This document shows, in pieces, positions 23,351 to 48,419 of a stretch of DNA of 64,000 nucleotides. The translations under genes were made by a program, and so were the position numbers. This stretch comes from Candidatus Thorarchaeota archaeon. Its GTDB lineage: Archaea > Asgardarchaeota > Thorarchaeia > Thorarchaeales > Thorarchaeaceae. The DNA lies in the NCBI GenBank assembly GCA_011364985.1, contig RDOC01000002.1:64001-128000 (forward strand), read 5' to 3'. The number at the start of each line of letters is the position of its first letter. Positions within the stretch are counted from its first letter, which is position 1. The notes below the pieces were generated by a model that was given only the letters and a program-made list of their open reading frames with translations, did not search any database and was not told the DNA's origin.

Positions 23351-24389
23351 TGGTTACGATATCTCTAATGAGACCGCTGTGCACTCGGATTGGTATGTGA
23401 TAGGCGCATTTGAATCCAAGATCATTAGCAATCTCAGGTATTCTCATTTTGTTACTTCCAGCTATGCATAGCATTCCATTTGGCTTCAATATTTTGGGGA
23501 TTGCTGCAAGAAATTCGGTAACCAGATTAGTGGCCTCGCTACCCCTTGTTGAACTTGCTCTTCCGTAAGGGGGGTCAGTGACAATGCTATCGCAGAAATG
23601 TTGTGCGATAGGAGGAACTCGTGCATCTCCTTGTATCAGTGAGAAAAGGGTATGTTTCTGGTGAATGAGATTTAACTTGGAACCCATTAGTTGGCGCCAA
23701 TTCAAATCCATACCTATGGTTTTCGCACCCAAAGCTGCAAGTTCTAACAGAATTCCGCCACTCCCCGAGAAAGGATCATAGGCAATCTTTCCAGACATGA
23801 CGCCGGCGAGATTGCACATGACTCTCGCAAGTTGTGCGTTCATCATTGACGGATGAAAGAATGGTTTCTTGGCTGAGTTCTTGTTCATGAGTTTCTTTCT
23901 GCTATCAGACTTGTAGCTGCGACACACCTTGACACCATTTGAAGTCAATAGAACGAGAATCTTGGCATTTGGTCGTTTTGCATCAATCTTTGCCTTGGTA
24001 AGGTGTTTGATTTTGGTTCCAAGAAGATTAGTTATCTGTTGTCTATATTCATTCATACCTTTGGATACTAGGGATTGTGTACGAACACAGAATGTTTCGG
24101 TTGGCTGAATGCTGGATGCTAATTTCTTCTCTGGAATCCATTCTATATCTTCATTAAGAGCAGAAGATTCCGCGATTATGTATCCAGCTTCCTTAATCAT
24201 TGCTGCTCTGAAAAGAAGAAAAGCAAGATTATGTTTGCCTGTATTGAAGACAACTAGATTCTGATTCCAAGTTAATTCAGCTTCGAAATTCGCTAAATGT
24301 AGAATTGATTCGAATTCTGCCCGTGCAAGTGCTGGTTCTTCTCCAGACAAAATGGCAAAGCATTTGGTCACTAGCAAATCACTGCTCAC
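23340..24389 (-). CDS. THUMP-domain tRNA (guanine-10 N2) methyltransferase, Trm11/TrmG10 family
   Basis: LSGEEPALARAE, PFFHPSMM, DPFSGSGG, TDPPYG, VHSGLIR. Confidence 0.88.
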   Translation of the reverse strand: MSSDLLVTKCFAILSGEEPALARAEFESILHLANFEAELTWNQNLVVFNTGKHNLAFLLFRAAMIKEAGYIIAESSALNEDIEWIPEKKLASSIQPTETFCVRTQSLVSKGMNEYRQQITNLLGTKIKHLTKAKIDAKRPNAKILVLLTSNGVKVCRSYKSDSRKKLMNKNSAKKPFFHPSMMNAQLARVMCNLAGVMSGKIAYDPFSGSGGILLELAALGAKTIGMDLNWRQLMGSKLNLIHQKHTLFSLIQGDARVPPIAQHFCDSIVTDPPYGRASSTRGSEATNLVTEFLAAIPKILKPNGMLCIAGSNKMRIPEIANDLGFKCAYHIPIRVHSGLIRDIVTIRV

Positions 24390-25150
24390 ACAATTAAGTT
24401 ATCTCCTCCAAGAAATATTCTTTGCATTTCTCCATATAGAGACTCCATTCCTGACATTGATCTTGCTGATACGGGAATAACGTGACTCTCGTTTCCAATA
24501 TCATTTAGCATTTGGAGAATTGCGGTGGAGTATTCACGGACAAGGCCATCTGAGAATTCCTCAAGGACACCTTCAAGGAGGTAGGAATCATCTGACCAGC
24601 TTACAATCTCTTCGATCTGCTCTTCAATAAGAATGTCAGGTTTGCTAAGTATGTTGAGTTGGGGTAATACAAAACGTATGTGAATTGAAAGACCTAGAAG
24701 CATTGACGAAAGGTATCCAGCTGGAGTTCTGGCAATATTCGAATCAAGTAGATAGAGTGAAAGCGCTGGGTCTGCATCTCTGATACTTGAAACCATAAGT
24801 GGACCAGAATTTCGATAGGCAAAAAGCTCCATTTGTCCAGGGCAATCAACAATAACGTAGTCTCGACCCATTTCGATAATCTCTTCTCTGAGTTCTCCTA
24901 TTTGTCCCACAGCCATATCCAACGAAGCAACCAGTGCTCCATTTGGACCTAGATTGAAGCTATTCATGACTTCCCCATAATCAACATATTCCCTGATATC
25001 AATATCACTTGTATACGGAGGATTTTCAATTCCTGGATCCAGATTGACCACGGTCACGCTCATATCAGCTGTGACTAACCACTTCTCCAAAGAGGCAGTC
25101 ATCATGGACTTTCCGCTCCCAGCAGTACCAACTATGAAAGTGAAGAGCAT
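24386..25150 (-). CDS. GPN-loop GTPase
   Basis: GTAGSGKS, NLDPG, LGPNG, DCPGQMELF. Confidence 0.93.
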   Translation of the reverse strand: MLFTFIVGTAGSGKSMMTASLEKWLVTADMSVTVVNLDPGIENPPYTSDIDIREYVDYGEVMNSFNLGPNGALVASLDMAVGQIGELREEIIEMGRDYVIVDCPGQMELFAYRNSGPLMVSSIRDADPALSLYLLDSNIARTPAGYLSSMLLGLSIHIRFVLPQLNILSKPDILIEEQIEEIVSWSDDSYLLEGVLEEFSDGLVREYSTAILQMLNDIGNESHVIPVSARSMSGMESLYGEMQRIFLGGDNLIV

Positions 25151-25263
25151 CGATTTAACCGATTGAAAGGCAAGCTTCGTTTCTCTTTGAGTGCTTCGGT
25201 ATCGCCCAATACCAAATCAGCTACTGCACAAGTCTTATCTGAGATGAAACATCGGTTTCTAGT

Positions 25264-26004
25264 ATGGATGATAGTGAGGCTACCCAGAAGCTTGCAGAAG
25301 CCATAGCTGGAGAAATCTGCCTTGCTGAGAATGACCCTGGTGCGGTCATGAAACGATGGCGGGAACGATTCCAAGTATCTCAAAAACAATTGGCAAAACA
25401 TCTCGAAGTATCACCCTCTGTGATAAGTGACTATGAAAGCGGAAGAAGGAAATCGCCCAGAGTTGAAACAATTAAGAAATTCATTGAGGGCCTACTTGAA
25501 CTTGATGCTGCAAGTGGAGGCCGTGTAGTCATGGCACTTGAGAAACTTGTCGCACCAGAAATTGCATCGGAGGCGATTCTAGATAGCCGGGAATTTGGAC
25601 TTCCGGTTCCAGCACGTTTGTTAGTAGAGTATCTTGATTGTAAGGTATTAACGCATATTAATTTGCTAAATCGTGATATATATGGCTATACTGCCTTGGA
25701 TAGCGTAAAGGCAATCGTTAGTATGACCCCCCAACAACTCTTACGTCTATATGGAGGAACAACTCAACGGGCTGCCATACTTTCGAATGTTTCAACTGGT
25801 AGGTCTCCAATGGTAGCAATAAAAGCAAGTCAGATTGGAACATCATCTGCAGTCAAACCGGCTGTTGTAATCCTTCAGGGAGTGAACGATTTGGATCCTT
25901 TGGCTGTGAAAATCGCTGATAGTATACACCTGCCTCTCTGCCTATCGGATATGGAATCTGATGAGTTGATACATCAGATTCGAACCTTCAATCCTCAGAT
26001 ATAA
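25264..26004 (+). CDS. Archaeal XRE-type HTH transcriptional regulator (COG1709-like)
   Basis: IAGEI, SPSVISDYESGRRKSP, GYTALDSVKAI, VSTGRSPMVAIK. Confidence 0.85.
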   Translation: MDDSEATQKLAEAIAGEICLAENDPGAVMKRWRERFQVSQKQLAKHLEVSPSVISDYESGRRKSPRVETIKKFIEGLLELDAASGGRVVMALEKLVAPEIASEAILDSREFGLPVPARLLVEYLDCKVLTHINLLNRDIYGYTALDSVKAIVSMTPQQLLRLYGGTTQRAAILSNVSTGRSPMVAIKASQIGTSSAVKPAVVILQGVNDLDPLAVKIADSIHLPLCLSDMESDELIHQIRTFNPQI

Positions 26005-26027
26005 TTCGGAGAAGGAGAACGAAGTAC

Positions 26028-27323
26028 GTGAACTTCGAAACAGAAATAAATGACCCGATTCATGGGTTCATTGGACTTACTGATATTGAAGCTAGAATAA
26101 TCAATTCCGAAACTTATCAAAGACTCAGACGGATAAAACAGCTATCAGGTGGTCACTTTGTCTATCCAACTGCTGAACATACAAGATTCGGGCATTGCAT
26201 TGGTGCAATGTATTTGGCCGGTATGATGGGCAGACGCCTTCTTGCTCCACTAGGGCTTGGAAATGACGCACTTCAAGAAGTTAGAATTGCTGGACTACTT
26301 CACGACATCGGGCATGGGCCCTTTAGTCACGTTTTTGAGGAAGTCCTTGTTGAACGTAGAGGATGGAATCATGAAGACGTAACTGAATGGATAATACGAA
26401 AAAGCGAGCTTGGTGAGTTGCTCGAATACGGTGGGATTTCGCGTAACCGAATTGCAGATCTTGTTCGTGGAAAACGAAAAAGAAAAAACGATTCGGTCGT
26501 TAGTTCAATAGTAGCAGGACAAGTTGATGCTGATAAGATGGACTATCTCATCCGAGACTCGTTTTACTGTGGAGTAAATTATGGCCTTGTTGACATCCAT
26601 CGCCTAATTAATAGTCTTGAGGCGTCTGATGACTTGATTCTTCAATTTGATTTGGCGGCACGTGGAGCTCTTGAATCATTTCTTGTGGCGCGCTATGAAA
26701 TGTTTCTCAACGTCTATTATCATAAAACCGTGCGAAGTGTTGAGATTATGCTTGTAAAAATGATGCATGCAGCAGATAGCGTTCTGAATTTGACAGGGTT
26801 TTCAACACCAGAGGAGTTTCTCTTGCTTGATGATATGTCGTTAATATCTCAAATCAGAAGAATAGACCCATCCGAATCGGAGAATGCAAAAGAGGCTGTG
26901 AAAATGGTGAGCATGTTGGATACAAGGACTCTTTACAAATCTGCATTTGAGAAAGTACTTCATACCGATGATCAATTCATTTCAAAGCTCCTTACAAAGC
27001 GAAAGGTACGTGAGAGTATTGAGGAAGAAATCGCAGAGGCAGCAGGAGTTCCATCTGAGAAGGTTATAGTAGATGTACCAACGCTTCCATCAGTGCCATA
27101 TGATCCTCATCAGCTCAATCCTATGGAGATTAAGATCTTTGAAATCGTTGATGGAAAAAAGATACCACATAATTTCTCGGAATATTCAAATATCGCAGAT
27201 ATGATGAAAGTATATCTTGATGTGATTAGAGTCTATACCTACGACGAACATCGAAAAGAGGTGGGACAAGCGGCGAGAGAAATATTCCAAGAAGTACCAG
27301 AAGCTGCTTTGATTCATATGTAG
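26028..27323 (+). CDS. HD-domain phosphohydrolase (dNTP triphosphohydrolase/SAMHD1-like family)
   Basis: DPIHG, QRLRRIKQL, HTRFGH, LLHDIGHGPFSH, DADKMDYL, VYYHK. Confidence 0.9.
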   Translation: MNFETEINDPIHGFIGLTDIEARIINSETYQRLRRIKQLSGGHFVYPTAEHTRFGHCIGAMYLAGMMGRRLLAPLGLGNDALQEVRIAGLLHDIGHGPFSHVFEEVLVERRGWNHEDVTEWIIRKSELGELLEYGGISRNRIADLVRGKRKRKNDSVVSSIVAGQVDADKMDYLIRDSFYCGVNYGLVDIHRLINSLEASDDLILQFDLAARGALESFLVARYEMFLNVYYHKTVRSVEIMLVKMMHAADSVLNLTGFSTPEEFLLLDDMSLISQIRRIDPSESENAKEAVKMVSMLDTRTLYKSAFEKVLHTDDQFISKLLTKRKVRESIEEEIAEAAGVPSEKVIVDVPTLPSVPYDPHQLNPMEIKIFEIVDGKKIPHNFSEYSNIADMMKVYLDVIRVYTYDEHRKEVGQAAREIFQEVPEAALIHM

Positions 27324-27433: not shown

Positions 27434-28381
27434 TTGACTAACGAACTGACTGAAACACTTCAGAACATTAAGATGATTACTGGCGTAGAAAATGTGGTCC
27501 TTATCCAAAAGGATGGTTTACCTGTGGCCAGTGCAGGAGTTTGGTTCAGCAAGGAGGAAGTCTTTGCCGTTGCATCTTCTACTTGTGCGATTTATGGGGT
27601 TGCGCGGTTAGTTCATGGCGATTTTGAGTATTTATTGATGGAATCAGAAACTTCCAAGGTGTTTCTTGCGTCATTACCCAATGATACTGATTACTTCCTC
27701 ACTGTTACTACAGCGCCGAGAGTAAATCTGGCTGCACTATTCATCGAAATGAAAGATAGTCTCTTCCGTGTTTCCTTCCTTTTACGACAACACATAGATG
27801 ACAGACTTCCTCCTCTACGTTCGTATAGCAATCATGAAACACAAAGAATATTGAAAGGCTTTTCAGTTGCTGAGGGACAAGATACTAAGTATAGCACCTC
27901 TAGATCAATAATCTCTTTTGATCGGTCTCAGGCCTTGGCACTTCGTGCGCTTTTGAAACAGGTACATGATAGCATTCCAAACACTGATTCTGTGTTTCTT
28001 TCACTTAATGGAGGGGTACGTTTGTCCTTGGAGGGATTTACAAATGATAGACTAGCAGCCATGTCCTTCGCTTTGCATGATGCATCTGAACGCGTTGTAA
28101 GAACATTGAGAAACGGCTCACTGCAGACCGTTCTTTGTGAAACCGAAAGCATACGGCATTTCATATATGCTGTGCCCAATGGTGTATTCAGTCTATGGGT
28201 TGATCGAAGTAGTCAGAAGCTTGGACTGATGCGTTTGTTACTCAAACACTACATTGAGGAGATTAGAAGAGTTTTACAGGCTTGTCATGAAATGAAATCT
28301 GCTGTACCAGACGACTTGAAGGAGCTGCTTCTCGGAGAGATAGGAAACGGCAGCATGATGCTTGCGAGGAGAGAACCATGA
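27434..28381 (+). CDS. Tandem roadblock/LC7 (MglB/LAMTOR-like) domain protein
   Basis: Two units with the roadblock pattern: GVENVVLIQKDGLPVAS...NLAALFIEMK and NTDSVFLSLNGGVRL...RLAAMSFAL...KLGLMRLLLK. Confidence 0.8.
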   Translation: MTNELTETLQNIKMITGVENVVLIQKDGLPVASAGVWFSKEEVFAVASSTCAIYGVARLVHGDFEYLLMESETSKVFLASLPNDTDYFLTVTTAPRVNLAALFIEMKDSLFRVSFLLRQHIDDRLPPLRSYSNHETQRILKGFSVAEGQDTKYSTSRSIISFDRSQALALRALLKQVHDSIPNTDSVFLSLNGGVRLSLEGFTNDRLAAMSFALHDASERVVRTLRNGSLQTVLCETESIRHFIYAVPNGVFSLWVDRSSQKLGLMRLLLKHYIEEIRRVLQACHEMKSAVPDDLKELLLGEIGNGSMMLARREP

Positions 28382-29298
28382 CATATTCTATAATGCGTTT
28401 GATTGAGTTGGTTGAAAATGATTTTCCTCTTTTGCTTAATGCAGTAATGAGCAGGCTGCCAATACTTGTTGCGGGGAATGATGTTGAGCTGGTTGATGAT
28501 GTGACGGAGAGTTTGAGCATGCTGGCCCCCCATCGTCATAAACTAGTGTTCTGGCGTGACTTCACGTCTGAGAATGAGATTTTGTCCGTGTGGGAAGAGG
28601 AAAAACATGATTATGAGGTGAGCAGAACAATTGTATGTGGTTTGTCCTCAAACCTCAGACTGGCCTTGGATAGAATCACTCGATTTGCGGGATGGATTTT
28701 GGGTATTCCACTTGGAAACACTGTTCTAGGTGTAGATGTGGACGATGGTTTGCTTCAAACAGTGATAAACAGAATTCTGCAAACATCTCAGAATTGCGGC
28801 ATCTTGCGTATTGATACTCCATCATCGATGAATTTCTCTTTGATAGAAACTCATCATAGCAGTCTTGACATTGAAAAGAGAATTGTAACTAAGATACTGA
28901 CTAGAAAGAAACAATCGCTTGAGAGAATAAGACGACTTCTAATGAAATCACTCAGAGGACTTGAAGTTTCCAATCATGTTGTTAATGCCATACTGAAATT
29001 GGATAATGAATCGGAGAAGCTTACACAGGATGTTTTTGATGAGGAGATAAGTAACTACGTTCACGCTGCACGAAGAGCTGTTACTCTTCTCTCAAGAATA
29101 AGGCTTGCACGGGAGTTGGGTGCATCGACATTTCTTACTGAAAGGAATTTGTTTGAGGCAATAGGTTGGGACAGTGGAGAACTCTCTGATTTGATTCAGC
29201 TCATTCACGCAGAATGGCATGAAGATTTCTCCGACTGTGTCAAGGCTGGTGCGCTTTCTGGACTAGGTGCATGGGTGGATAGTATGTGGGGAACATAA
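28378..29298 (+). CDS. Hypothetical protein with a DENN/folliculin-C-terminal-like core
   Basis: LLNAVMSRLPILVAGNDVELVDDVTESLSMLAP follows the helix-strand-helix pattern of the cDENN core. Translationally coupled (ATGA overlap) to the roadblock gene. Confidence 0.55.
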   Translation: MTYSIMRLIELVENDFPLLLNAVMSRLPILVAGNDVELVDDVTESLSMLAPHRHKLVFWRDFTSENEILSVWEEEKHDYEVSRTIVCGLSSNLRLALDRITRFAGWILGIPLGNTVLGVDVDDGLLQTVINRILQTSQNCGILRIDTPSSMNFSLIETHHSSLDIEKRIVTKILTRKKQSLERIRRLLMKSLRGLEVSNHVVNAILKLDNESEKLTQDVFDEEISNYVHAARRAVTLLSRIRLARELGASTFLTERNLFEAIGWDSGELSDLIQLIHAEWHEDFSDCVKAGALSGLGAWVDSMWGT

Positions 29299-29315
29299 TG
29301 GAGGATGAGAATTAA

Positions 29316-29894
29316 GTGATTATTGATTATGGAAACAGAACGATTGGCCTGAAAATAGTCTTCTTTGGGCCTGCTATGAGTGGAAAGACGACAGCAATCA
29401 GATGGCTTTTCTCAAGTCTGGACTATGCAGAGAACTTGACCTCAATAGAGAATACTGTTGGTCGTACGATGTTCTGTGATTTTGGAACTATTCCATTCTC
29501 TCTTGGGGATAGTTGGACGATTAATTCACATATATGGTCTGCAACAGGACAAGATTTTTATCGCTCCACAAGAGAAGTTGTTCTTGTGGGAGCCGATGGT
29601 GTTGTGTTTATGGTCGATTCTCAAGAACACCTACTCGAAGAGAATCTTGCCAGCTGGAATGAGCTTATGACAATGGTTGCAGAGGAGGAACGTCCATTGC
29701 CAATAGTGGTATGTCTCAACAAGCAAGATCTGCCTAGAGCAATCAAAGAGGAAGAAATTCGGGCTCACCTTAGGCTTCCATCTTCGATTCCAGTATTTAG
29801 AAGTATAGCAAGTGAAGGGCAGAATATTCTTGAGGCCTTTCAGGTTCTATTTCAGAATGCAATGCGTGCCAATGTACTTGCCCAACCCTTGTGA
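29316..29894 (+). CDS. MglA-like small GTPase (Ras superfamily)
   Basis: KIVFFGPAMSGKTT, GRTMFCDF, SATGQ, GADGVVFMVDS, NKQD. Confidence 0.9.
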   Translation: MIIDYGNRTIGLKIVFFGPAMSGKTTAIRWLFSSLDYAENLTSIENTVGRTMFCDFGTIPFSLGDSWTINSHIWSATGQDFYRSTREVVLVGADGVVFMVDSQEHLLEENLASWNELMTMVAEEERPLPIVVCLNKQDLPRAIKEEEIRAHLRLPSSIPVFRSIASEGQNILEAFQVLFQNAMRANVLAQPL

Positions 29895-35010: not shown

Positions 35011-36150
35011 ATGTCTGAAGAAAAGAAAAGAACCTATTTTTGGCAAGGAAATCAGGCATGTGCAGAAGCAGCAATATCTGCAGGATGTAGGTTCTTCGCA
35101 GGCTACCCGATTACTCCAGCTTCTGAGATAGCAGAAATCATGGCCAAGAGGCTTCCTGAAGTTGGAGGAACATACCTTCAGATGGAAGATGAGATAGGGG
35201 CTATTTCAGCAATAGTTGGGGCTTCATGGGGAGGCATGCTTTCCATGACTGCAACATCTGGGCCAGGTTTTAGCCTGATGCAGGAAAATATAGGTTATGC
35301 AATCATGACCGAAACCCCTTGTGTAATCATTGATGTTCAGCGAGCTGGACCCAGTACAGGACAAGCAACGAAGGTGGCCCAAGGGGATTTTATGCAAGCA
35401 AGGTGGGGCACACACGGAGACCATGAGAGTATTGTACTGGCACCAAATTCGGCTCAGGAGTGTTATGAACTCACTCTGAGGGCTTTTCAAATCTCAGAAA
35501 GCATTAGACACCCAGTTATTCTTCTATCAGATGAAGTGGTAGCACATTCACGTGAAGGTGTCGTAGTAAAGCCAAATGATGATGTACAAGTTCATCGTAG
35601 GTTTGCTAGGAAAAATGAACCACATTTTGGAGGAATTGATGCAAAGAAACAAGCCATAATGCCAAGATTCGGAGATGGCCATGATTTGCTTGTCACTGGT
35701 TCAACTCATGATAAGGAAGGTTTTAGAAAAACATCCGATCCAGAAGCCCATAATGCACTTGTCCGACGACTCGCATTGAAAATTCAGAACAATCGATCTT
35801 TACTGACCGATTTCGTGGTTTCAGGTCCTGAAACAGGTGACTGGGGAATAATCTCGTATGGATGTACATCAAGATCTGTTGAGGAACTTATAGCAACCAA
35901 TTCCAGCAAACTGGCAATTAGATCATTTAGACCCAGAGGAATATGGCCATTCCCTGATGTGGAAATGCGCGAATTTGCGCAATCGGTCGACCGATTATTG
36001 GTCCCTGAACTTAGTCTCGGACAATTATCAAGAGAAGTATCTAGATCTGTGGGATCTGACAAGGAGATAGTGTCATTGACCAAGATTGGTGGTGGGTTAT
36101 TAATCGAACCAGATGAGCTGTTAAGAAAGATATCGGAAGAGCTTTCGTAA
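35011..36150 (+). CDS. korA: 2-oxoacid:ferredoxin oxidoreductase alpha subunit
   Basis: GNQACAE, AGYPITPASE, QMEDE, TATSGPGFSLMQE, QRAGPSTG. Confidence 0.93.
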   Translation: MSEEKKRTYFWQGNQACAEAAISAGCRFFAGYPITPASEIAEIMAKRLPEVGGTYLQMEDEIGAISAIVGASWGGMLSMTATSGPGFSLMQENIGYAIMTETPCVIIDVQRAGPSTGQATKVAQGDFMQARWGTHGDHESIVLAPNSAQECYELTLRAFQISESIRHPVILLSDEVVAHSREGVVVKPNDDVQVHRRFARKNEPHFGGIDAKKQAIMPRFGDGHDLLVTGSTHDKEGFRKTSDPEAHNALVRRLALKIQNNRSLLTDFVVSGPETGDWGIISYGCTSRSVEELIATNSSKLAIRSFRPRGIWPFPDVEMREFAQSVDRLLVPELSLGQLSREVSRSVGSDKEIVSLTKIGGGLLIEPDELLRKISEELS

Positions 36151-38483
36151 ATCGTGATTTCATTCTGCAGTGATACAGCTTGCTGTTCTTGATTGTCAAT
36201 AATCAGGACGATGCTGGTTCGCATCCATACTATCGTTCTAAACGACTTGTTAAGAGAAATACACCATGCTGTAGTGATTTCGAAAAGAATTTGATGCTCT
36301 CCGGGTTGTACCCACACAGGCAGAATAAATGGGATTTCTGTGAATGTACTATGATTATTCAAGGAAATGACTGGTATTTTGAAACTATCGAGGAATATTC
36401 GTGTGCTAACAGATGATATAGATGTACCATTATCATATTGCAAAGAAACCGTTAGGTTGGCTATTTCGTTGTAGTATACTGGGCTAATTGTTACTAATCC
36501 ATCTATGGACCCCTGAATTTGGACTTCGATCTCAGGAGTTTCCAAAAGGGTATATGTTACGTTTACTATCGAAATCATTAGTACATGAATACCAAGAGAA
36601 ACGTTGTTAGGTATTATGACCGAAATTCTCGCTTGTTTGTCAGTCATTACAGAAAATGAAAAAGAGAACTCATCCGTGAAATCATCAATCATAATCCTAA
36701 GAGATTGATTGAAAGAAAACTCAGAATCCAGAGTGAACGCTAATGACAGATTCGATCCTCTGATAGCATTCCATGACGTTTGAGCAGGTGAGAAAAGAAC
36801 AGGATATTGTATTGGGATTTCGATTGGGATTGTAGTTTCTGCTAGGTAAATTGAAGGATTTGTTTCTATAAGAATAGCAAGGTGGTGTATTCCAACTTGG
36901 GTATCTGTGGACACTAACCAATCAATATATGAAATGCCTTGCATATTTGTTGTGCCGATTCCTAAAGTAGCACCAGTTTCATTAATCAATCGTAGATTAG
37001 CTCCCTCAATGGGATCTCCCTGAGCATTTCCAACTCTTATAGCAGCCTCGGAAACATGGCCTAGGACTGTGGGTTGCACAATGTCATAGGAAACATTCGC
37101 GGAGAAGAAGATGGTAATGCTCTTAATATAGTCTAAAGATTCGTGATATAGCGTTCCATTACTTGTAGCTCTTATTAATCCAGAACCGAAAAACGTGTTT
37201 GGGATATTCAGCAAGGCCCGAATAGCCCCACTGACATTGGTTGCATGAAGACTGCTAGCAATTATCATGGTTTCATTTGATATTTCAATGAGAATTGGAT
37301 ATGACTTGATGCTTGTGTCGATTGTTGAGTCTGCGATTTCAATATCGATGACTAAGAATGCTCCACTTGTAGGGTTCTCGGAACAAGTTAAGGATAGAGT
37401 GACGTTTCTGCGAATCGCCTCTATGAGGATTGTTGATGTGCTTGATTGATACAAGGAATTGTGTGCTGTGATATTAACAGACCATATTCCTGGTGGAACT
37501 TCAAAGGGAATTGAAGCAGAATAGAATCCATTGCCAACATTGTCCATTGTTCCACTTGAAAATGAGGTCTGCCAGATTACAAGACTGTCATTCAATCTGG
37601 ATTCTGCCATATTTGTGTGAAGTATTGTAATATTGACCAATTCTGAATGATCTTCATAAGGATTTTCACATAGTATTATATTCGGAGATGATATGACTGT
37701 TATATTCGAGTGGGCAGGAAGGACAGTAATTGGAAGTGAGTCTGAGAATGGAGAGAAAGCTAGTGTACCATTGCCTGATATTGCGAGACTATAGCTTCCT
37801 GGGGGACCAAAGCTATTGCTCCAGTTCAAGGATAGGAATCCATTTGTATCTGTGATAAAATCTTGGGTGAAAACTTCAGTTGATGATTCATCGAAAACTG
37901 CAAGTGATACAGGGCTATTTGACAATACTATGTTACTGTTGTGAATGCTATTGATTCTGAATTTGAGTGTGCAATTGCTATTAAACTCGATATTTGTTGA
38001 TGATTCAGGAAGCACCTCCAGAGAACCTCTTGTAATGTTGATTGGAATTGTATCGCCGCCGCCCTGAGAATACCCGTCATATATTTCTACATTGAATATT
38101 ACATAGGCTACAGATCCATCTATGCCAGGGGAAGCGCAGTCAGGGCGAATCGTGTGTGATGAACTAAGATAGCGTATGTCGGGCAGAGCTCCAATATAGT
38201 AACTATCTGCAAAAACAACTCCTTGATCTGTTACGATTGAAAATGAAACATAACACCATCCATCTTGACTAAAGTCTGCTATTAGCTTGGCAACCATATC
38301 TATTGTTTCGCCAACTTCATAGACCAGTTTGTCGGTTTCAAAGTAGTAAAATTCGAAATAGTATGCTGTGACAGGAGCTGCGATACAAAGAATTGTTAGA
38401 ATTGAAACGGATACGATTACAATAGTCTGGTTATTCAAATAACACACCAAATGGAAGTCTTGACTATCCCTAAAAAACAGCAC
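35784..38483 (-). CDS. Large secreted beta-rich (Ig-like repeat) surface protein; 3' end overlaps korA antisense
   Basis: N-terminal hydrophobic signal-like segment, FETDKLVYEVGETI, many N-x-S/T sequons, S/T/N-rich beta repeats. Start may be TTG 38438. Confidence 0.7.
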   Translation of the reverse strand: MLFFRDSQDFHLVCYLNNQTIVIVSVSILTILCIAAPVTAYYFEFYYFETDKLVYEVGETIDMVAKLIADFSQDGWCYVSFSIVTDQGVVFADSYYIGALPDIRYLSSSHTIRPDCASPGIDGSVAYVIFNVEIYDGYSQGGGDTIPINITRGSLEVLPESSTNIEFNSNCTLKFRINSIHNSNIVLSNSPVSLAVFDESSTEVFTQDFITDTNGFLSLNWSNSFGPPGSYSLAISGNGTLAFSPFSDSLPITVLPAHSNITVISSPNIILCENPYEDHSELVNITILHTNMAESRLNDSLVIWQTSFSSGTMDNVGNGFYSASIPFEVPPGIWSVNITAHNSLYQSSTSTILIEAIRRNVTLSLTCSENPTSGAFLVIDIEIADSTIDTSIKSYPILIEISNETMIIASSLHATNVSGAIRALLNIPNTFFGSGLIRATSNGTLYHESLDYIKSITIFFSANVSYDIVQPTVLGHVSEAAIRVGNAQGDPIEGANLRLINETGATLGIGTTNMQGISYIDWLVSTDTQVGIHHLAILIETNPSIYLAETTIPIEIPIQYPVLFSPAQTSWNAIRGSNLSLAFTLDSEFSFNQSLRIMIDDFTDEFSFSFSVMTDKQARISVIIPNNVSLGIHVLMISIVNVTYTLLETPEIEVQIQGSIDGLVTISPVYYNEIANLTVSLQYDNGTSISSVSTRIFLDSFKIPVISLNNHSTFTEIPFILPVWVQPGEHQILFEITTAWCISLNKSFRTIVWMRTSIVLIIDNQEQQAVSLQNEITIYESSSDIFLNSSSGSINNPPPILVNDTISLSDPTDLDTSLDNCPRLSSGTNNRSTDCANSRISTSGNGHIPLGLNDLIASLLELVAISSSTDLDVHPYEIIPQSPVSGPETTKSVSKDRLF

Positions 38484-38544
38484 ATGATTGCAACGACAAC
38501 TTTAATTCTGGACTAGATGGAGGTTAGTTGAGTCGAAGACTTGG

Positions 38545-38922
38545 ATGGGTAAACATATGGTTGTACGGCTGAAAAATACTGTAATAGAATCAATTGAAGA
38601 TGCTGATACCAAACGATTGAAACTGATACATATTGTTTCCAAGGACGAAGGGGCTGCTATTACTCTTGAATTGCCGGAAGCTCTCTGTGAAACCTTGAAT
38701 ACAAATGATTCAGTGACTGTTACCTTAGATTCGAAAGCGTTGACAAAAGGAGAGAACTCTAGGCTGTATATGGAGGCAAGAGTTTTCAGAACAGATGGAG
38801 AAGATGAATTGAATGTCATTGCAGCTGCAGGTGGACTCAGACTAACCTTACTGATGAATAAACCTACTACTGTGCAAAAAGCCACATTTGATGCCGATAA
38901 GCTCTTTTTTGTAATACAGTAG
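38545..38922 (+). CDS. RNA polymerase subunit Rpo8/Rpb8-like (OB fold)
   Basis: About 120 aa beta-rich; LYMEARVFR...AAGGLRLTL matches the Rpb8 YxMxGxVY...GGLL pattern. Confidence 0.7.
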   Translation: MGKHMVVRLKNTVIESIEDADTKRLKLIHIVSKDEGAAITLELPEALCETLNTNDSVTVTLDSKALTKGENSRLYMEARVFRTDGEDELNVIAAAGGLRLTLLMNKPTTVQKATFDADKLFFVIQ

Positions 38923-39101
38923 ATTTCTCAAGGTCTTGAAGTTATATGTCTTATGATTAGTTACAGTGACCCCTCTTTCTGTCTAGGCTTTCTAAACCTG
39001 TGAGACAGTATATGGAATTCACTCTATGGAACTAATGGTCCTAGAGAAGGGATTAAGCTATTCTGAAAGCCAGTTAGGATTTCGTACCGCTCAAATCTTG
39101 G

Positions 39102-40136
39102 GTGTGGTCTTTGATTGATGAAATATTCAAGGTGATTCAAGATTCGCCATGGTTGTGTCCTGATTGTTCTGGGATGCTTGTGGTGAATCAAGGGTTTTTT
39201 GTGTGTACTGAATGTGGTTTAGCTGTTTCAAGAGAATATGTCATTCCTACCTACCAAATGGGAGAACAAAGGGGAACTGACACACCTGATGCAAGTGTAT
39301 TCGTGTCTCTCGGAAATAGAATGCATATTGTTGATGGACTTGGGAGTTATATTGGATTTCACAAAGAAAGATATTTCCAGGATGCGCATGGTCAAGTGCT
39401 TTCGTCACGAATGCAAAAGAAGTTTAAACGGCTTAAGACAGTCTATAGTACGCGCATTAGAATTGGAAAAGACGAGGCAAAGTATAGAGCACTCAGAACT
39501 CTCAATCACGTTTCAAAATTACTGATGCTAAATGAACAAGTGCGTGATAGGACAGCTTATCTCTACAAGAAGATAGTTTCGGAATCTTCGAACAAAGTTA
39601 CAAATAACATCCTTCTCATTGCAGTTTGTCTTCTTATGGCTGTTAGAGAATTCAAGGAGGGGGCTCCGATAACACTTGAAGAAATAGCCAGCACTTTTGA
39701 GAAATGTGGACATAGGGTTAATGTAAGAGCTATCGTAAGAGAAGCATTGCGACTTAAGTCTATAATGGGTGTGGCTCCAGAAATTCGGAAACCCGAAGAT
39801 TATGTTCCACGAGTTCTCTCAATGCTAATGAATAGCAGAAGAGTTGTTGACAAGGTCATTTCACGAGGATGGGATCCAAGAAGCTATGAGAATGCTCTGC
39901 GTGACAAAATCCTTGAATTACTGGAACTGATTCCAGCTTCGAAACGGGGCGGCCGAAATCCATTCATTTTCACTGTTTCAGCAGCGTATGCCAGTGATCG
40001 ATTAATTGCAGAGAAGCATAATAGACGTTCTGTATTGACCCAAAAGCTCACCTCAAGCGCCACAGAAGTAGCTGAATATAGTATTCGAGATCATTTTGGG
40101 ATGATGAAGCAAGTCGTGGCAATGTCCGATGAGTGA
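39102..40136 (+). CDS. Divergent transcription factor B (TFIIB) paralogue
   Basis: Zn ribbon CPDC...CTECG, GLGSYIG, two cyclin repeats (PITLEEIA; GRNP; TQKLTSSATEVAEYSIRDHF). Confidence 0.85.
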   Translation: MWSLIDEIFKVIQDSPWLCPDCSGMLVVNQGFFVCTECGLAVSREYVIPTYQMGEQRGTDTPDASVFVSLGNRMHIVDGLGSYIGFHKERYFQDAHGQVLSSRMQKKFKRLKTVYSTRIRIGKDEAKYRALRTLNHVSKLLMLNEQVRDRTAYLYKKIVSESSNKVTNNILLIAVCLLMAVREFKEGAPITLEEIASTFEKCGHRVNVRAIVREALRLKSIMGVAPEIRKPEDYVPRVLSMLMNSRRVVDKVISRGWDPRSYENALRDKILELLELIPASKRGGRNPFIFTVSAAYASDRLIAEKHNRRSVLTQKLTSSATEVAEYSIRDHFGMMKQVVAMSDE

Positions 40137-41841
40137 ACTTGAAATGATTGAAAAAGAAATAAAGATTGTAATCTGTTCAAAAAATAGATGCAAGGATTGT
40201 CAGCATGCCTCCGGTCTTGAATGCATGAATCTTGTAGAATTGCAAGACAATACAGATTTACGAATCGTCCTTCTAGTAGAGCAAAGCAAGGGGCTCATAC
40301 ACTTCAGCAAGCTTGTTCGACTACCGAAACGAGCTCCATGGTACAGCAACAGCTGGGATACTGTCTATGTTCACAAGGGAAGAATATTAGATGATCCTAA
40401 TGCTATTGTTGATTTCTATTCAACTGATCCCTATCTTTCCGTATTCTTCAAAGAAGAAAACAGTGGTGACCTATTCTATGAAGCATATCCTATTGTCCGT
40501 TCACCAATTGAAACAGCACTTGTAGAACAACTCGGACGCGATTTGTCACAGATTTTGGAGAAAGAATCTTCAGTTAGAGTAAAGCTAACAAATAGACTTG
40601 AGAGGCTTGCCTTGGCAGTTTCAAAGAAGATTTCAAAATTATTACCAGAAATTAATGATAGCACCCGTAGTAGAATATCAAGCATTGTTGCAAATGAGTC
40701 AACTGTAATTGGCCCGATGATTCCTCTTCTTCTGGATGACGAAGTTGAAGAGATATACCTTGACAGACCATGTAGCTCTCTATATTTTGACCATGCAAGA
40801 CATGGACGTAGTAGAACTTCACTGATACTTGATATGGATATTATTTCCCGTCTTGTAACCTTATTTAGAGCCGAAAGTAATTTGCATTTGGACCGAAAAA
40901 ATCCTTCCTTGAAGACGGATCTGAGTCTTCTTGGAAACTTACTTAGAGTGTCTGTTGGTGCTCCGCCTCTAGCTTCAGATGGCTTTCATTTGGAAATACG
41001 TCGTGCTCGCAAGAAACCATTGTCTTTGCTTGATTTGATAAAGAATGGAACGCTTACTCTAGAAGCAGCCTCCATTCTTATGCTTGCTCTTGGTTGTAGA
41101 TTCAACATTACGATAACTGGTGAGCCAGGATCAGGTAAAACTACCCTCTTGAACGCCTTGGATATGAGCAGCCCTCGTACTTGGAGAAAAGTCTACATTG
41201 AAGATGCTATAGAAAGCAGAACTCAATTGACGCACCATCAACTGAGAATCAGGGTTGATCCTGTTGACGAAGCTAATAGTAGATATAACAAGGACGTAGA
41301 GATTGTCAAGAGTTTACATAGATCGCCCGATTATTTAATACTGGGCGAAATACAGACAATGGAGCATAGTAGGTCCTTATTTCAAGCCATGGCAGCAGGT
41401 TTGCGCACAATCCAAACTTGTCATAGTTATTCTGCAGCAAGTCTGATTTCAAGGTGGGTATACAATCATCGAATAGAAGAATCAAGTCTAGCAATGATGG
41501 ATCTAATAGTGACTCTAAATAGACCAATCCCGGGTGAATCTTTGAGAAGAGTTGTCGAGATTGCAGAAGTGAAGAAGAGGATAGATGATGGGTTCTTACG
41601 TTTTGGAGGCTTGAATATACTCTATTCTGTTGTAGTCTCCAAACCGATCAGTTGGGCGGAAGATGGGGCGTTTCGGTTCCATGCCAACCAAGATGGATTC
41701 GAAAACCATATTCCTGCTTTTGAAATCATTGTGAAGATTCTTCGAGAAAACGTTCTTTCAATTACAGAAGAGAATAGCTTCCATTTGAGCGAGAAGCTCT
41801 GGGAATATGGACATCCCTTGAAGATTGTCGGTAGTGAATAA
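40129..41841 (+). CDS. Type II/IV secretion system ATPase (VirB11/TadA/FlaI family)
   Basis: PLLLDDEVEEIYLD, Walker A GEPGSGKTT, Asp box IED, RSPDYLILGEI, His box TCHS, RRVVEIAE. Confidence 0.9.
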   Translation: MSELEMIEKEIKIVICSKNRCKDCQHASGLECMNLVELQDNTDLRIVLLVEQSKGLIHFSKLVRLPKRAPWYSNSWDTVYVHKGRILDDPNAIVDFYSTDPYLSVFFKEENSGDLFYEAYPIVRSPIETALVEQLGRDLSQILEKESSVRVKLTNRLERLALAVSKKISKLLPEINDSTRSRISSIVANESTVIGPMIPLLLDDEVEEIYLDRPCSSLYFDHARHGRSRTSLILDMDIISRLVTLFRAESNLHLDRKNPSLKTDLSLLGNLLRVSVGAPPLASDGFHLEIRRARKKPLSLLDLIKNGTLTLEAASILMLALGCRFNITITGEPGSGKTTLLNALDMSSPRTWRKVYIEDAIESRTQLTHHQLRIRVDPVDEANSRYNKDVEIVKSLHRSPDYLILGEIQTMEHSRSLFQAMAAGLRTIQTCHSYSAASLISRWVYNHRIEESSLAMMDLIVTLNRPIPGESLRRVVEIAEVKKRIDDGFLRFGGLNILYSVVVSKPISWAEDGAFRFHANQDGFENHIPAFEIIVKILRENVLSITEENSFHLSEKLWEYGHPLKIVGSE

Positions 41842-41925
41842 TAATTTATGTAGTACTCAAATAATCCATGAATTTGGGGGTATTTAAAACATAAAGAACA
41901 TAGACAAAAGCATAGGTATGAATAG

Positions 41926-42129
41926 ATGAAGGCAATCAAAAATCCTCTCAAAGATGAAAGGGGAGGTCCATTGGTAGAAGAAAGCTTACTTCTTGGTCTT
42001 GCTGTGATTACCATTTCGATAGTGATTGCAGTTATTTTTCAGGCGACAGGTTGGGCACAAAATGTAGTTGCTGGGTTGCTTCAGCTATTAGAAGACAGCT
42101 GGAATGGTGTGACACATTTACTTCCTTAG
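41926..42129 (+). CDS. Flp/type IV pilin-like small protein
   Basis: Class III-like leader LKDERG|GPLVEE with Glu at +5, followed by a hydrophobic helix; 67 aa. Confidence 0.75.
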   Translation: MKAIKNPLKDERGGPLVEESLLLGLAVITISIVIAVIFQATGWAQNVVAGLLQLLEDSWNGVTHLLP

Positions 42130-42270
42130 TTTTGCCGTAAATTCATTATAACTATGAGACCCTTACATCTAAGAATAGAAACATACTTGATGAATCAATT
42201 ATAATAGATGCGGGGAAACCCTTATTTGTGGTTAGAGAGGTGCTCTCGCGCTCCAGACTGGCGCAATCAG

Positions 42271-42379
42271 GCTCCGGTAGATATGCTGTAATTTCATTCA
42301 GCATTACCGAGTGTAGTCCGGCCCAGCATGGGGGACTCTCGATCCCCCGACCCGGGTTCAAATCCCGGCCGGAGCACCA
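42271..42379 (+). tRNA. tRNA-Glu(CTC) with a 31-nt intron at position 10/11 (42281-42311), CCA encoded
   Basis: Acceptor GCTCCGG/CCGGAGC, anticodon arm GGGGA-CT-CTC-GA-TCCCC, T arm CCGGG-TTCAAAT-CCCGG. Removing the insert restores GCTCCGGTAG|TGTAGTCCGG. Confidence 0.9.
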
Positions 42380-42384
42380 ATTCT

Positions 42385-44349
42385 TCAACTGATTATGTTT
42401 CTTTTGTAAATTAGTGGAATTCCTACTATAATTATGGATAGTAGAATACTCAATGTGAGTCCAGATACACCGACACCTTGGGCTGCTAGTGCATCTGCCT
42501 CAGAAACAACTATCATAATATTTCCGTAGCATGAAGCAATTGTGGGCTGGACCTTAGTCTGGTAGTGAAGAATATGAGTGCCAATTCCTAATATGGGAAG
42601 ATGAATACTAACAAATCCATTTTCTTGAGATGTTGCCGTCATTGTGATTTTATTCCATGTATAACTGAAATCTACGTCTTTCAAATAGGTACCATTAAGA
42701 CCACGAATCATGAAGTTTACGATGATTTCCTGCGCTGGTGGAGTAATCTCGTAGCTGTCGGTCTGAATCGTTACAGGCATAACTCTTGTCACGACAAAAG
42801 GATAGGAAAGATTAGCTGACAGTTCTAATCCTGATTGTGTCCCGTAGTAGAATAGAGTGAAGACGTAGACATTTTCAATTACTGGAGCAACAAGATGAAT
42901 TTCAGCAACGCCTTCTGAATTCGTTGTGAAGATTTCTATTGTTTCGTTATCGAGACCCTTAAGTTCAATCAATCTCTCGGATATTCCACCGTTATGGTCC
43001 TTCAATTTGACTTCAAATGATATACCTTGTGAAGGAGATGCATATCCAAGGATGCTATTGGATATGATTACTAGATTTGGTTGAGACCATACGACAACAT
43101 CTTGGAAGTGAGTCGTATTTGAAATGTAGTTGTTGCCTGTGATTCTGATTTCTAGTGAATGTGAGCCTATGCAATCCTTGAATGCAAATGGAACATCTAC
43201 ATAGGTTAAACTATAGGCAATTCTTGTAGACATTTCCTCGCCTGATAACAGGTCATGTAGGTTAACTACAGAATTTGGAATATACCTACCTAAGGTATCA
43301 GAAACTTCAATTCTGAATATGTTATCGATTCCTAAAACTACATTGGTCGGAATTTTCGTATCTAAAAGAACTGGACTAATTACATTGAAGTTGACTTCGA
43401 TATAGGTAGCTGCATTACGATCTGTACCATTGTATTCTATTCTAACAGTATTTGGTCCAAGAAAGAATCTGGAATCTATGCTGATTTGGACCATGGCGTC
43501 CCCATTTTGGTTTGTTGTTATGGAATCAAAGAGAGCATTGTTAATAAGTAAGTCTAAGACAGAATTCGGAGTCCGGCCTTCGTGTGTTTCAAGATGTAGT
43601 TGAAATTCCAAAGTATCTGCCAAATTGACATTAGCAGGAAGAGAAGTATCCAAGTCTATGACACTTTCGATTTGTTCAACAGTGTATTGCAGAGAAATCT
43701 CAGCTTCAGAATGATGTGATTCTAAGCTTTGTTCAAACTTGACCAAAAAATCATTGATACCTAATGAGCTCCAAGTCAAATTGCACTGGAACATGAAGAA
43801 TGCGTATCCAGTTTCATTTGTTGTACTGGATGCCATTTCGGATGCAATTGAAAATAGAGAAACTTGTGCTCCGGCTATGGGTTCATTCATGTCATTTAGA
43901 AGTGTGAGTTCAAGGAGAAAGTAGTCGTTGGGATGCAGTGTTTCTGAGTAGTGTTCAATGATTATTTGTGATCTTGAGAGTATATGGATATAAGCCCATT
44001 GAGAAGAAGATGCAAGAGCTAGAGATTCATTTCCCAAGAAAGTTACGTTCACAGGTGTTATGCCCAAAGGATGATTCGATGGAATACTCCATATTATTGA
44101 CGCATAGCCCTCTTGATTTGTTAGCGCAGAACCTAGGCATACGTCCAAAATAGCATCATAGAAGCTAATGACTTGATCAGGAACGGGATCACCATACGTC
44201 CCATTTTGCAACAATTGTGCAGATAGAAGTATCTCATCTCCTCTGACCACAATAACCTCGCCTTCTGCATGAACATCTGTGGCATTAGATATTGATATGA
44301 CTATCAAACCAACAATACCAATGACTAATAGAGTAAGAAATCGTTTCAT
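42385..44349 (-). CDS. Membrane-anchored Ig-like repeat surface protein
   Basis: Signal peptide (MKRFLTLLVIGIVG...), repeated TNxxGxA beta units, C-terminal TM helix plus basic tail (YKRN). Confidence 0.8.
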   Translation of the reverse strand: MKRFLTLLVIGIVGLIVISISNATDVHAEGEVIVVRGDEILLSAQLLQNGTYGDPVPDQVISFYDAILDVCLGSALTNQEGYASIIWSIPSNHPLGITPVNVTFLGNESLALASSSQWAYIHILSRSQIIIEHYSETLHPNDYFLLELTLLNDMNEPIAGAQVSLFSIASEMASSTTNETGYAFFMFQCNLTWSSLGINDFLVKFEQSLESHHSEAEISLQYTVEQIESVIDLDTSLPANVNLADTLEFQLHLETHEGRTPNSVLDLLINNALFDSITTNQNGDAMVQISIDSRFFLGPNTVRIEYNGTDRNAATYIEVNFNVISPVLLDTKIPTNVVLGIDNIFRIEVSDTLGRYIPNSVVNLHDLLSGEEMSTRIAYSLTYVDVPFAFKDCIGSHSLEIRITGNNYISNTTHFQDVVVWSQPNLVIISNSILGYASPSQGISFEVKLKDHNGGISERLIELKGLDNETIEIFTTNSEGVAEIHLVAPVIENVYVFTLFYYGTQSGLELSANLSYPFVVTRVMPVTIQTDSYEITPPAQEIIVNFMIRGLNGTYLKDVDFSYTWNKITMTATSQENGFVSIHLPILGIGTHILHYQTKVQPTIASCYGNIMIVVSEADALAAQGVGVSGLTLSILLSIIIVGIPLIYKRNIIS

Positions 44350-44618
44350 TGGATTACCTTCGATTGAGCTAGTTGGCTACTATACTTGATGAGATGAACT
44401 CTCATTCCTTGTTGCAGCACAATTTCACAAGATGTGCGGCAGTTCCTTCTTTACGTTCTTCACACTCATTTTTAACCTCCTACAAATCCGGCTTCATATC
44501 TATTGAAAAAACAGAAGTCTGGGGGAGTTCATATGTGTTAGAAAGAACAGGAGCTTGGTCATGATTGTAGTACTTAGTATCCACGGATACTGCTGTTGAT
44601 GAAGCGAGTGATGTATTA

Positions 44619-47600: not shown

Positions 47601-48419
47601 AGGGGGAGTGTTGCTGCGGCAAAGCTACGAGAAATGATGGATATTTCTGAGGATTTTGATGTTGTGAATGTTGTATCTGCATTTCCAAGTTCTTTAGACA
47701 ATATGATAGAGAAACTGATTCCTAGAATAGACCAAAAAGAAGTTCAGACAAAACAATCTTGTCTTGAATCATCTGAACCGGAATCTGAACAAATCGATCT
47801 TATTGGATCTATCCATGAGATGGGTACTGCTACTAGTCGAGCTATACAAATGAGGCTTTGGTTTCAGCTCATGCAGGATTTCATCGACCTTTCCGATGGA
47901 CAAGTGGAATGGTCAGTGCTGTTGGAGTTCATTAACACAACTGCTATGCAATCCTTGAAAGGAAGATCTACACTATTGAATGCAGAAGAAGGAAAGCGCG
48001 CCTTAACTGAGTTGCTTGCTGATGAAGTCCTTATTGCGGTTCGAGTTGGCAGTGGATTTGACTTCGTAGATCTGTCTGAAGGATTATGGGTTTTGAATTC
48101 TGTAGTTCTGGAAGGGCTACGAAATCGTGTCCTCGATGTGATTGAAACTGAACTGAAAAGGAGAAGAATGCAGGTCTTCAAGGGTCATGGATACTATGAC
48201 TTCTGTGCGAATGGGGTATCCTATGTTGTCTTTCCTAATCAGCAGCAATTGAATACTCTATTACATTTACAAAGTGATATTGCCTGCAGAACTTGCAAGT
48301 CCAGACAAATTGTCTGCCTTCTTACAGCAGCTGAGTATTTGGAAGATAATGTAGTTATGCCACAAAACATGCATTTGTTTGACTTTTCGGAGTATGTATC
48401 TGCTGTAGGTGTTTCCTGA
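44619..48419 (+). CDS. Membrane-anchored VirB4/HerA-like (DUF87) ATPase with large N- and C-terminal extensions
   Basis: Two N-terminal TM segments, HIAVLGATGTGKTT, FDIKGSEY, VVLEEA, STRP, wHTH-like segments after the ATPase domain. Confidence 0.82.
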   Translation: MTRCKKRRTTHDTSEEAVLRSTWIIEVLWIVTTLISSLYLLLAYLLPLANVTGSLYFQFKFQIEILVCIVPLSLSIIMTFGRFERKEILITIKNDILVFSVDNRLIGISCLDILTVPGSVRIEDRNQPEYDTTFLLALRAGINARVTMSYEIGVQNNEPFLRIFITALGNELDEITSRIRTEATRAEAIFLASFNNIELNQLNNIELRKAVLSHLGKEFRESNRITLDDFPEHQTFLVLEGKPRVMPLYDASQVGTFISTVLKQGYTASLSCVFSRAKPGRERRRLEGEWKSIRAKEKRNEDSLEDQATKKRLLRHYNEIQGKEAWFDVSVALSIVGDNGDHLRQSEEGLLGLFYSIWGGDETIDLRRRKLNRRTAYRMLARRHLKSQRMHVSRLAAFVNTPVQQLPVIAASLLPTFSIPPNQVVDNELIIGKVSFGGHRLNDVGLKIEWLREHIAVLGATGTGKTTLVKQLMAELGAKTDIPWWIFDIKGSEYIDLMNSCRGDIHVLRPGVDSSFVIDLMDSEIDSIERHAHTTFAILKELLRERGTSSELTPAMERLLRSAVLSVARSEQNENSIQALVQKIVELSDKDRVGSMTKDALLNRLEILSREPLGAILAGGSSAIKISDMMEKRVIFDLHHVAMVGGMEAARLLYNLIAKRIFDYALHRGITPGLQHVVVLEEASNLVPESYSRDTAADVTTGESMVMLLRATGQGVVVISTRPNISSNILANTSTKITFRLPYDSSIGSRFMSLDETQERYLRVLKRGHALVILPGTETFEMLTYPFETSLTSEVVPSRISMEHEQPMVSTENEISSHDAIEYKKRLVESEIEEKITKHGTVFDRIGEVGNHVVAFLASRGMATQKQIQALLTTIDFGIEDEDINEMIRDLVSLGTIEREALSLVSGGFVFTLPGCGLEAVKAAIIDYIVNRLGSYYQEQEEKSKGGLDLLIDDKAILILPEHLKASSIEKVLHSIRSRMNVLGNSFAELIVVVRGSVAAAKLREMMDISEDFDVVNVVSAFPSSLDNMIEKLIPRIDQKEVQTKQSCLESSEPESEQIDLIGSIHEMGTATSRAIQMRLWFQLMQDFIDLSDGQVEWSVLLEFINTTAMQSLKGRSTLLNAEEGKRALTELLADEVLIAVRVGSGFDFVDLSEGLWVLNSVVLEGLRNRVLDVIETELKRRRMQVFKGHGYYDFCANGVSYVVFPNQQQLNTLLHLQSDIACRTCKSRQIVCLLTAAEYLEDNVVMPQNMHLFDFSEYVSAVGVS

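Follow-up and report, generated by a model that had tools for sequence, protein, structure and literature searches.

The locus described here lies in a 64,000-nucleotide stretch of a Candidatus Thorarchaeota archaeon genome (GCA_011364985.1, contig RDOC01000002.1, positions 64,001 to 128,000 of the forward strand), hereafter the window, and comprises three genes on the forward strand. These encode a tandem Roadblock protein (gene 1, 27434-28381, 315 amino acids (aa), start TTG), a stand-alone protein corresponding to the C-terminal lobe (C-lobe) of DENN/folliculin proteins and devoid of a longin domain (gene 2, 28378-29298, 306 aa, start ATG), and a group-1 MglA-type small GTPase (gene 3, 29316-29894, 192 aa, start GTG). 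Their tight linkage, pointed out in an earlier note made from the letters of the window, is evident in the ATGA overlap of genes 1 and 2 at 28378-28381 and in the gap of 17 bp between genes 2 and 3 (29299-29315), which carries a ribosome-binding-site-like GGAGG (29300-29304) 11 nucleotides before the GTG of gene 3. None of the three small proteins has a predicted membrane span. The locus is a real three-gene small-GTPase operon, one Thorarchaeote copy of an arrangement kept by many Asgard archaea. Promoter and terminator scans with a bacterial consensus returned chance-level matches only, and a complex prediction for the trio with gene 2 as partner (score 0.12, mark 0.32) gave no verdict and was not used as evidence.

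Conservation of the operon across Asgard archaea

In a sample of 301 genomes from 30 families, 163 genomes yielded gene 2 and 168 yielded gene 1. Both genes occur in the same 10 families and nearly always once per genome; gene 2 is the sole match to its family profile in the Thorarchaeote genome. Synteny was counted in 68 loci, many of them closely related, and gene order and strand are held in 66 of these across 10 Asgard families, the two exceptions being a contig end and a relocated gene 2; outside the home family, order is held in 26 of 27. Gene 2 lies directly before gene 3 in 67 of the 68 loci, and the spacing between genes 1 and 2 is within ~25 bp in most. The arrangement is thus not due to chance, and the conserved synteny on which the earlier note depended is present.

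In five loci, genes 1 and 3 adjoin each other and gene 2 is not beside them. One of the genomes concerned (G138) carries an intact gene 2 on a separate contig, another (G183) shows a weak gene 2 match only, and three (G022, G079 and G118; 80-83% complete) encode a Roadblock-GTPase pair without gene 2, this pair being probably a paralogous copy. It follows from these five loci that the Roadblock protein and the GTPase form the core pair, from which the DENN gene is detachable.

The operon is already known as a prediction. Liu et al. (2020, 10.1101/2020.10.19.343400) reported, for most Asgard archaea, a predicted operon encoding a Roadblock protein, a 'Rab-like' GTPase and a DENN protein, compared it with folliculin and Ragulator, considered the GTPase distinct from Rag, and proposed a role as guanine nucleotide exchange factor (GEF). 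Within the accessible part of their text, the three components, the Asgard-wide linkage and the folliculin/Ragulator analogy are common to both descriptions; the identity of the two operons rests on composition, and composition and spread match, 'most Asgard' there standing against 163-168 of 301 genomes and 10 of 30 families here. Neither the group-1 MglA type of the GTPase nor the two-domain build of the Roadblock protein is stated in that part. Hence the composition and the folliculin (FLCN)/Ragulator analogy, put forward as new in the earlier note, had been anticipated. What is added here is the correction of the GTPase class to MglA, the recognition of Roadblock and GTPase as the core pair, and an invariant Ala at the position equivalent to Ras G12. 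Literature searches found no bench test of the operon.

A few Roadblock and GTPase genes lie outside this arrangement. In L157-L159 (genomes G022, G118 and G079, respectively), a probably paralogous tandem-Roadblock gene is directly followed by a GTPase gene, with no DENN gene and with a nitrilase-like gene adjoining; in L160 (G011), a paralogous tandem-Roadblock copy stands beside a nitrilase-like gene, with no GTPase gene within the 1.5 kb retrieved. L073 and L077 are orphan operon-type GTPase genes, neither having a Roadblock or DENN gene within 3 kb of it; a tandem-Roadblock gene is present elsewhere in the L073 genome, and none was found in the L077 genome.

Gene 3 encodes an MglA-type GTPase

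Sequence comparison places gene 3 with MglA: phmmer gave E 2.6e-30 for MglA vs 4e-10 for Rab7, and the family profile searched against the PDB gave 3e-43 for MglA, 3e-14 for Rab11 and 1e-12 for the solved Thor-Rab. The motifs are a G1 at residues 18-25 with Ala20, Arg50-Thr51, Asp55, a G3 from Ser75 to Gln79, and a G4 NKxD. R50, T51, D55 and Q79 are invariant in 49/49 family members, and the first G3 residue is Ser in 39, Thr in 10 and Asp in none. The marks that define group-1 MglA include an intrinsic arginine beside the G2 threonine and, in G3, a Thr where other GTPases have Asp, together with a retained catalytic Gln (PMC4316618, PMC3000849), and Ser in place of the G3 Thr is tolerated in MglA (PMC3000849). 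The SATGQ-type G3 of gene 3 departs from the canonical TVPGQ, present in 68/72 bacterial MglAs. In a quick tree, rooted at the midpoint and with bacterial rows chosen by their likeness to the query, the Asgard operon GTPases form their own clade beside bacterial MglA (SH-like approximate likelihood-ratio test, SH-aLRT, 97), and together with MglA are split from the Rab-like paralogues of the genome (SH-aLRT 92). The protein is single-domain, with neither the Asp-x-x-Gly G3 of Rab and Rag nor the fused C-terminal Roadblock domain of Rag. Judged by these sequence marks, gene 3 is a group-1 MglA-type variant, not a 'Rab-like' or Rag GTPase, and the MglA-type motifs read earlier (the Arg-Thr of GRT and the Asp-less SATGQ) are present in the protein.

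The resemblance to the MglA-MglB systems of Myxococcus xanthus and Thermus thermophilus (PDB 3T12, 6H5B, 6IZW) extends over the G2 Arg-Thr, the G3 Ser/Thr-x-x-G-Q, the DF motif, the extra N-terminal strand, and a Roadblock partner in the same operon. The Asgard GTPase differs in that Ala replaces Gly21 and, in G3, Thr replaces Pro, and the Asgard operon in having two Roadblock domains per chain, whereas MglB is a homodimer, and an intervening DENN-fold gene, of which no homologue was found beside the bacterial MglA loci retrieved. The MglA-type group has been described as exclusively prokaryotic. The earlier view of the operon as an intermediate towards Rag/Ragulator/FLCN is not sustained, the GTPase being of MglA type, and Liu et al. 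likewise set it apart from Rag.

The same Thorarchaeote genome encodes two further MglA-like GTPases, five further Roadblock proteins, and several Rab-like GTPases with an Asp-type G3. The last bear on a reading, near to what Liu et al. suggested, in which gene 2 would regulate other GTPases (Rab-like RasL or Rag) and an MglA module would be linked by the operon to a eukaryote-like one. Eukaryotic DENNs do act on Rabs and Arfs, and a GEF role for both Rab and Rag GTPases was proposed by Liu et al. (10.1101/2020.10.19.343400). However, the position of gene 2 directly before gene 3 in all but one of the loci, with the order held across 10 families, makes this very improbable.

As separate observations, the segment 141592-144918 of contig C16 in G000 holds a second MglA-like GTPase gene adjoining a single Roadblock gene, and another two genes of the Roadblock type lie within 3 kb. 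A third MglA-like GTPase (G000, contig C17, 64845-65708) has a 100-residue N-terminal extension.

Gene 1 encodes two Roadblock domains in one chain

The two Roadblock domains that had been proposed for gene 1 were recovered by three approaches. Pfam Robl_LC7 matches the protein twice (E 3e-10), the two halves align to each other in hhalign (probability 82%, E 1e-5, 118 columns, 15% identity), and the AlphaFold2 (AF2) model, with a predicted local distance difference test score (pLDDT) of 78 and a predicted template modelling score (pTM) of 0.74, contains two complete Roadblock folds joined by a linker of ~40 residues. In the model, and in fold and profile searches, both halves have the five-strand, three-helix Roadblock/LC7 fold; the best Foldseek matches were a Thor Roadblock (E 7e-7), a Ragulator subunit (3e-6) and MglB (1e-5).

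Domain 1 (residues 1-120, 27434-27793) is the better-conserved half, with a mean identity to 26 distant members of 40% vs 25% for domain 2, which suggests that the predicted pseudo-dimer is asymmetric. In the VIA structure search, domain 1 matched MK-D1 Roadblock3 (Z 13.0), MglB (12.9) and a chain of MP1-p14 from Ragulator (11.0). Domain 2 (residues 161-282, 27914-28279) begins a helix with an MglB-like LGLxR and matched MK-D1 Roadblock (E 5e-10), CvnB5 (2e-5) and MglB (0.006) in profile searches. The chain ends in a short helix predicted with low confidence (residues 293-300, 28310-28333), whose acidic-hydrophobic pattern is loosely retained and which is a possible counterpart, by analogy, of the MglB Ct-helix. 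The pTM of 0.74 and the 40-residue linker suggest a fixed packing of the two modelled halves, and gene 1 is a probable single-chain, MglB-like pseudo-dimer.

Gene 1 shares the Roadblock fold with two unlike protomers with Ragulator (LAMTOR2/3 and 4/5), although its fold score there is no better than for MglB (Z 11.0 vs 12.9). In Ragulator, which acts on Rag, a lipid-anchored LAMTOR1 holds two Roadblock heterodimers together. The operon further differs from Ragulator/Rag in its one tandem protein, in having no LAMTOR1-type anchor gene seen within it, and in a GTPase without a fused Roadblock domain or G3 Asp.

Gene 2 encodes a DENN-fold lobe without a longin domain

The resemblance of gene 2 to cDENN and folliculin, claimed earlier from the sequence, holds for structure and not for sequence, where no match was detectable. 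The peptide quoted for this claim is indeed present in gene 2, at residues 19-51. Pfam returned no family at cut-off (only Njmu-R1, E 0.085), and a profile search of the PDB gave no match. Foldseek gave FLCN as best hit (E 5e-3), and language-model features pointed toward the C9orf72-like, SPA and Folliculin_C clusters. The AF2 model (pLDDT 91, pTM 0.87) was compared with 48,161 solved chains by VIA, in which the top six rows were all DENN-family C-lobes (Z 10.1-13.6), the best unrelated row reaching 9.7. These include DENND10 (residues 157-357, Z 13.6), FLCN (345-558, 13.1), SMCR8 and C9orf72 (both 11.5), and DENND1A/B (169-367, 10.1-10.3), with 178-209 residues aligned at root-mean-square deviations of 3.4-5.3; the structure atlas gave template modelling scores of 0.47-0.53 to SMCR8, DENND10, AVL9 and DENN. 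On the evidence of the model, gene 2 has a DENN fold and is no nearer to folliculin than to DENND10, the Z values being tied, so that the fold check suggested earlier returned the DENN/FLCN C-lobe.

The alignments start at residue 1-3 of the gene 2 model, equivalent to FLCN 345, DENND10 157 and DENND1B 169. Since model and C-lobe are both aligned from their beginnings, gene 2 contains no longin part, as the earlier note had maintained; the chain is a C-lobe fold (cDENN and dDENN) with no N-terminal longin (uDENN) lobe, in a family ~290-310 aa long. With FLCN, C9orf72, SMCR8, DENND10 and DENND1A/B (PDB 3V42, 6NZD, 7O2W, 6LT0, 8P0V, 3TW8), it has in common an alpha/beta core and the helical part of the C-lobe, and it differs from these eukaryotic DENNs in having neither longin nor longin arginine finger and in its extra helices and conserved Trp tail. 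This tail (29251-29295), acidic and amphipathic, is a candidate binding motif: its pLDDT is <50 in the monomer model, yet W304 is found in 50/50 alignment rows, with a mean hydrophobic moment of 0.37 and a net charge of about -1.

The missing lobe bears on two functional proposals. In DENN-type GTPase-activating proteins (GAPs), the arginine finger sits in the longin domain, as in FLCN-FNIP, C9orf72-SMCR8, GATOR1 and Avl9-type GAPs; gene 2, which has no longin domain, is consequently not a folliculin-type GAP, contrary to what had been considered. It had also been proposed that gene 1 takes the place of the longin by docking on gene 2, so that a two-lobed DENN would be restored in trans, prefiguring FLCN/Ragulator. 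The Roadblock and longin folds form related platforms, of which DENN is similar to one half, the two genes overlap by ATGA here and stay within ~25 bp in most loci, and a search for longer or longin-fused forms of gene 2 found none, which is weak evidence. Against this, genes 1 and 3 stay together in the five loci where gene 2 does not adjoin, the tandem Roadblock protein likely fills its own dimer edge within the modelled chain, the FLCN C-lobe can work alone and needs no partner in trans (PMC3438538), and the separate longin-DENN fusions of Heimdallarchaeota are better folliculin precursors. Reconstitution in trans is accordingly considered improbable.

A P-loop ATPase identity for gene 2 was rejected, such rows scoring lower (Z up to 9.7) and the family alignment containing no Walker A motif. 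Residues 225-291 resemble a winged helix of topoisomerase VI A (Z 7.0, 62 residues), which raised a possible link to the DUF742 protein of the actinobacterial conservon, for which Pfam gave no support.

A proposed GTPase switch and its alternatives

The favoured interpretation is a GTPase switch of the MglAB type in which a DENN lobe is the third partner, a reading that, taken whole, has about an even chance of being correct. According to this proposal, gene 3, whose sequence shows its own catalytic Arg50 and Gln79, binds GTP, while gene 1, folded into one pseudo-dimer in the model, would act like MglB as a platform that binds the GTPase 1:1 and orients these two residues, leading to faster hydrolysis. 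MglB acts as a dimer that orients the GTPase's intrinsic Arg (PMC3747258), and by analogy gene 1 is likely to be a single-chain GAP platform. The DENN core of gene 2 would bind the GTPase's switch regions, promoting GDP release or positioning the GTPase. Since Rab35 binds mainly the C-lobe in DENND1B, and the isolated FLCN C-lobe (FLCN-CT) releases GDP in vitro (PMC3438538), gene 2 may be an exchange factor; a measurable exchange activity seems plausible, with the balance tipped slightly the other way. Spatial control at the cell envelope is the probable output.

Several observations weigh against this proposal. The identity of gene 2 to eukaryotic DENNs is only 10-13%, ~100-120 of its residues fail to superpose on them, and diverged DENNs show little conservation of the residues that bind GTPases; the exchange activity of FLCN-CT is possibly weak and non-specific. 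Gene 3 has an invariant Ala20 at the position of MglA Gly21 and Ras Gly12, where Gly occurs in 61 of the 66 commonest P-loop motifs of 72 bacterial MglAs, and as substitutions at this MglA position reduce hydrolysis (PMC3000849), GAP action may be weak. The partners could also be the other GTPases and Roadblock proteins of the Thorarchaeote genome. Finally, Myxococcus MglA appears to have no need of a classical GEF, RomRX being reported as an effector and MglB as serving both roles (PMC13408092).

This last point makes an effector or scaffold role of gene 2 the main rival, in which gene 1 would supply both GAP and exchange activity and gene 2 would either bind the GTP form, as RomX does, or localize the Roadblock-GTPase pair through its Trp tail. 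MglB, together with its Ct-helix, provides both activities (PMC13408092), and gene 1 ends in a short acidic helix, although its likeness to the MglB Ct-helix is loose. The disordered tail of gene 2 is invariant, gene 2 is detachable from the pair, its top fold match, DENND10, is a Commander subunit, and DENN proteins are not to be presumed GEFs (10.64898/2026.01.05.697756). On the other hand, DENND1B contacts the switch regions chiefly through its C-lobe, and in FLCN-CT this lobe has exchange activity; the effector or scaffold role is considered unlikely, if less so than the other alternatives.

For the MglAB-type switch with a DENN-lobe partner, a tested parallel is the mycobacterial conservon, where a Roadblock GAP, a GEF and a small GTPase are encoded in one operon (PMC11343762). 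The actinobacterial conservon (MfpD Roadblock GAP, MfpC DUF742 GEF and MfpB GTPase; PMC11343762) follows the same one-operon plan of a GAP, a third protein and an MglA-family GTPase. Its third protein has exchange activity and is a DUF742 rather than a DENN protein, gene 2 having no DUF742 match in Pfam, and no sensor gene accompanies the Asgard operon. Conservon GTPases belong to MglA group 2, the members of which do not have the intrinsic Arg.

Overall, the earlier interpretation stands in part: the tandem Roadblock protein, the DENN/FLCN C-lobe without longin, the MglA-type GTPase and the synteny were retained, whereas the novelty, the longin function in trans, the GAP role of gene 2 and the intermediate position towards eukaryotes were not. 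The operon bears on the origin of eukaryotic GTPase regulators, among which DENN proteins are the largest family acting on Rabs, with folliculin, C9orf72 and SMCR8 being of importance in human disease. Matching Asgard GTPases to their regulators is difficult, most not being encoded in operons (PMC10933270). The trio is a cognate set of three small proteins that could show the role of the DENN lobe before it joined the longin domain, and the Thorarchaeote copy is of value as a set for tests, the GTPase class having been corrected and specific residues being identified for mutation.

Genomic neighbourhood and a possible pilus connection

Downstream of the operon, the window contains a pilus-like locus (35784-48419) with two immunoglobulin-like surface proteins, a divergent TFB overlapping the gene of a type II/IV secretion ATPase (40129-41841, 12 kb downstream), and a HerA/VirB4-like ATPase of 1266 aa. 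Such an ATPase gene is usually 5-30 kb from the operon, as are housekeeping genes. Of the 57 genomes with both listed on one contig, 55 have a homologue of the secretion ATPase at most 35 kb from gene 2, a count biased by short contigs and kinship, and in five more genomes from other families the distance is 5-13 kb. A control weakens the link, as an RFC small subunit gene lies 8-21 kb away in 4/4 genomes of two families, and the secretion ATPase is also present in families where the operon was not found; the proximity may be plain neighbourhood conservation. Since bacterial MglA controls type IV pili, the link was kept as a lead, and control of this nearby pilus system is the best lead on the output of the switch, albeit a rather slim one. 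The more specific combination, in which the MglA-type GTPase has the longin-less DENN lobe as its cognate exchange factor and the single-chain Roadblock pseudo-dimer as its GAP, and in which the Asgard pilus system next to it is positioned or gated by the switch, is slimmer still. If true, gene 2 would become the first DENN of a prokaryote for which an activity is demonstrated, and DENN function would have originated on a prokaryotic polarity GTPase, before the longin fusion.

Upstream, genes for a GPN-loop GTPase, a helix-turn-helix protein and an HD-domain hydrolase (24386-27323) were rejected as parts of the operon, being nearby almost only in Thorarchaeia.

Other neighbours are specific to particular families. 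In families f9 and f24 (L042-L046, L050, L068-L070), gene 1 is transcribed away from a 16S ribosomal RNA (rRNA) gene at a distance of 313-532 bp, in 9 of the 12 loci scanned, an arrangement not seen in the window or in the loci of other families. The operon is often near contig ends in f9 and f24 genomes because of this adjoining 16S rRNA gene, which could share a promoter region with gene 1. In family f9, the opposite strand also carries a divergent second gene for an MglA-like GTPase, at 0.5-2.5 kb downstream of the operon (L042, 4779-5459; L045, 2988-3647; L050, 5380-6066; and L161 and L162). In families f8 and f15, a hydrophobic gene of ~210 aa closely follows the GTPase gene (L033, 5808-6443; L034, 5833-6459).

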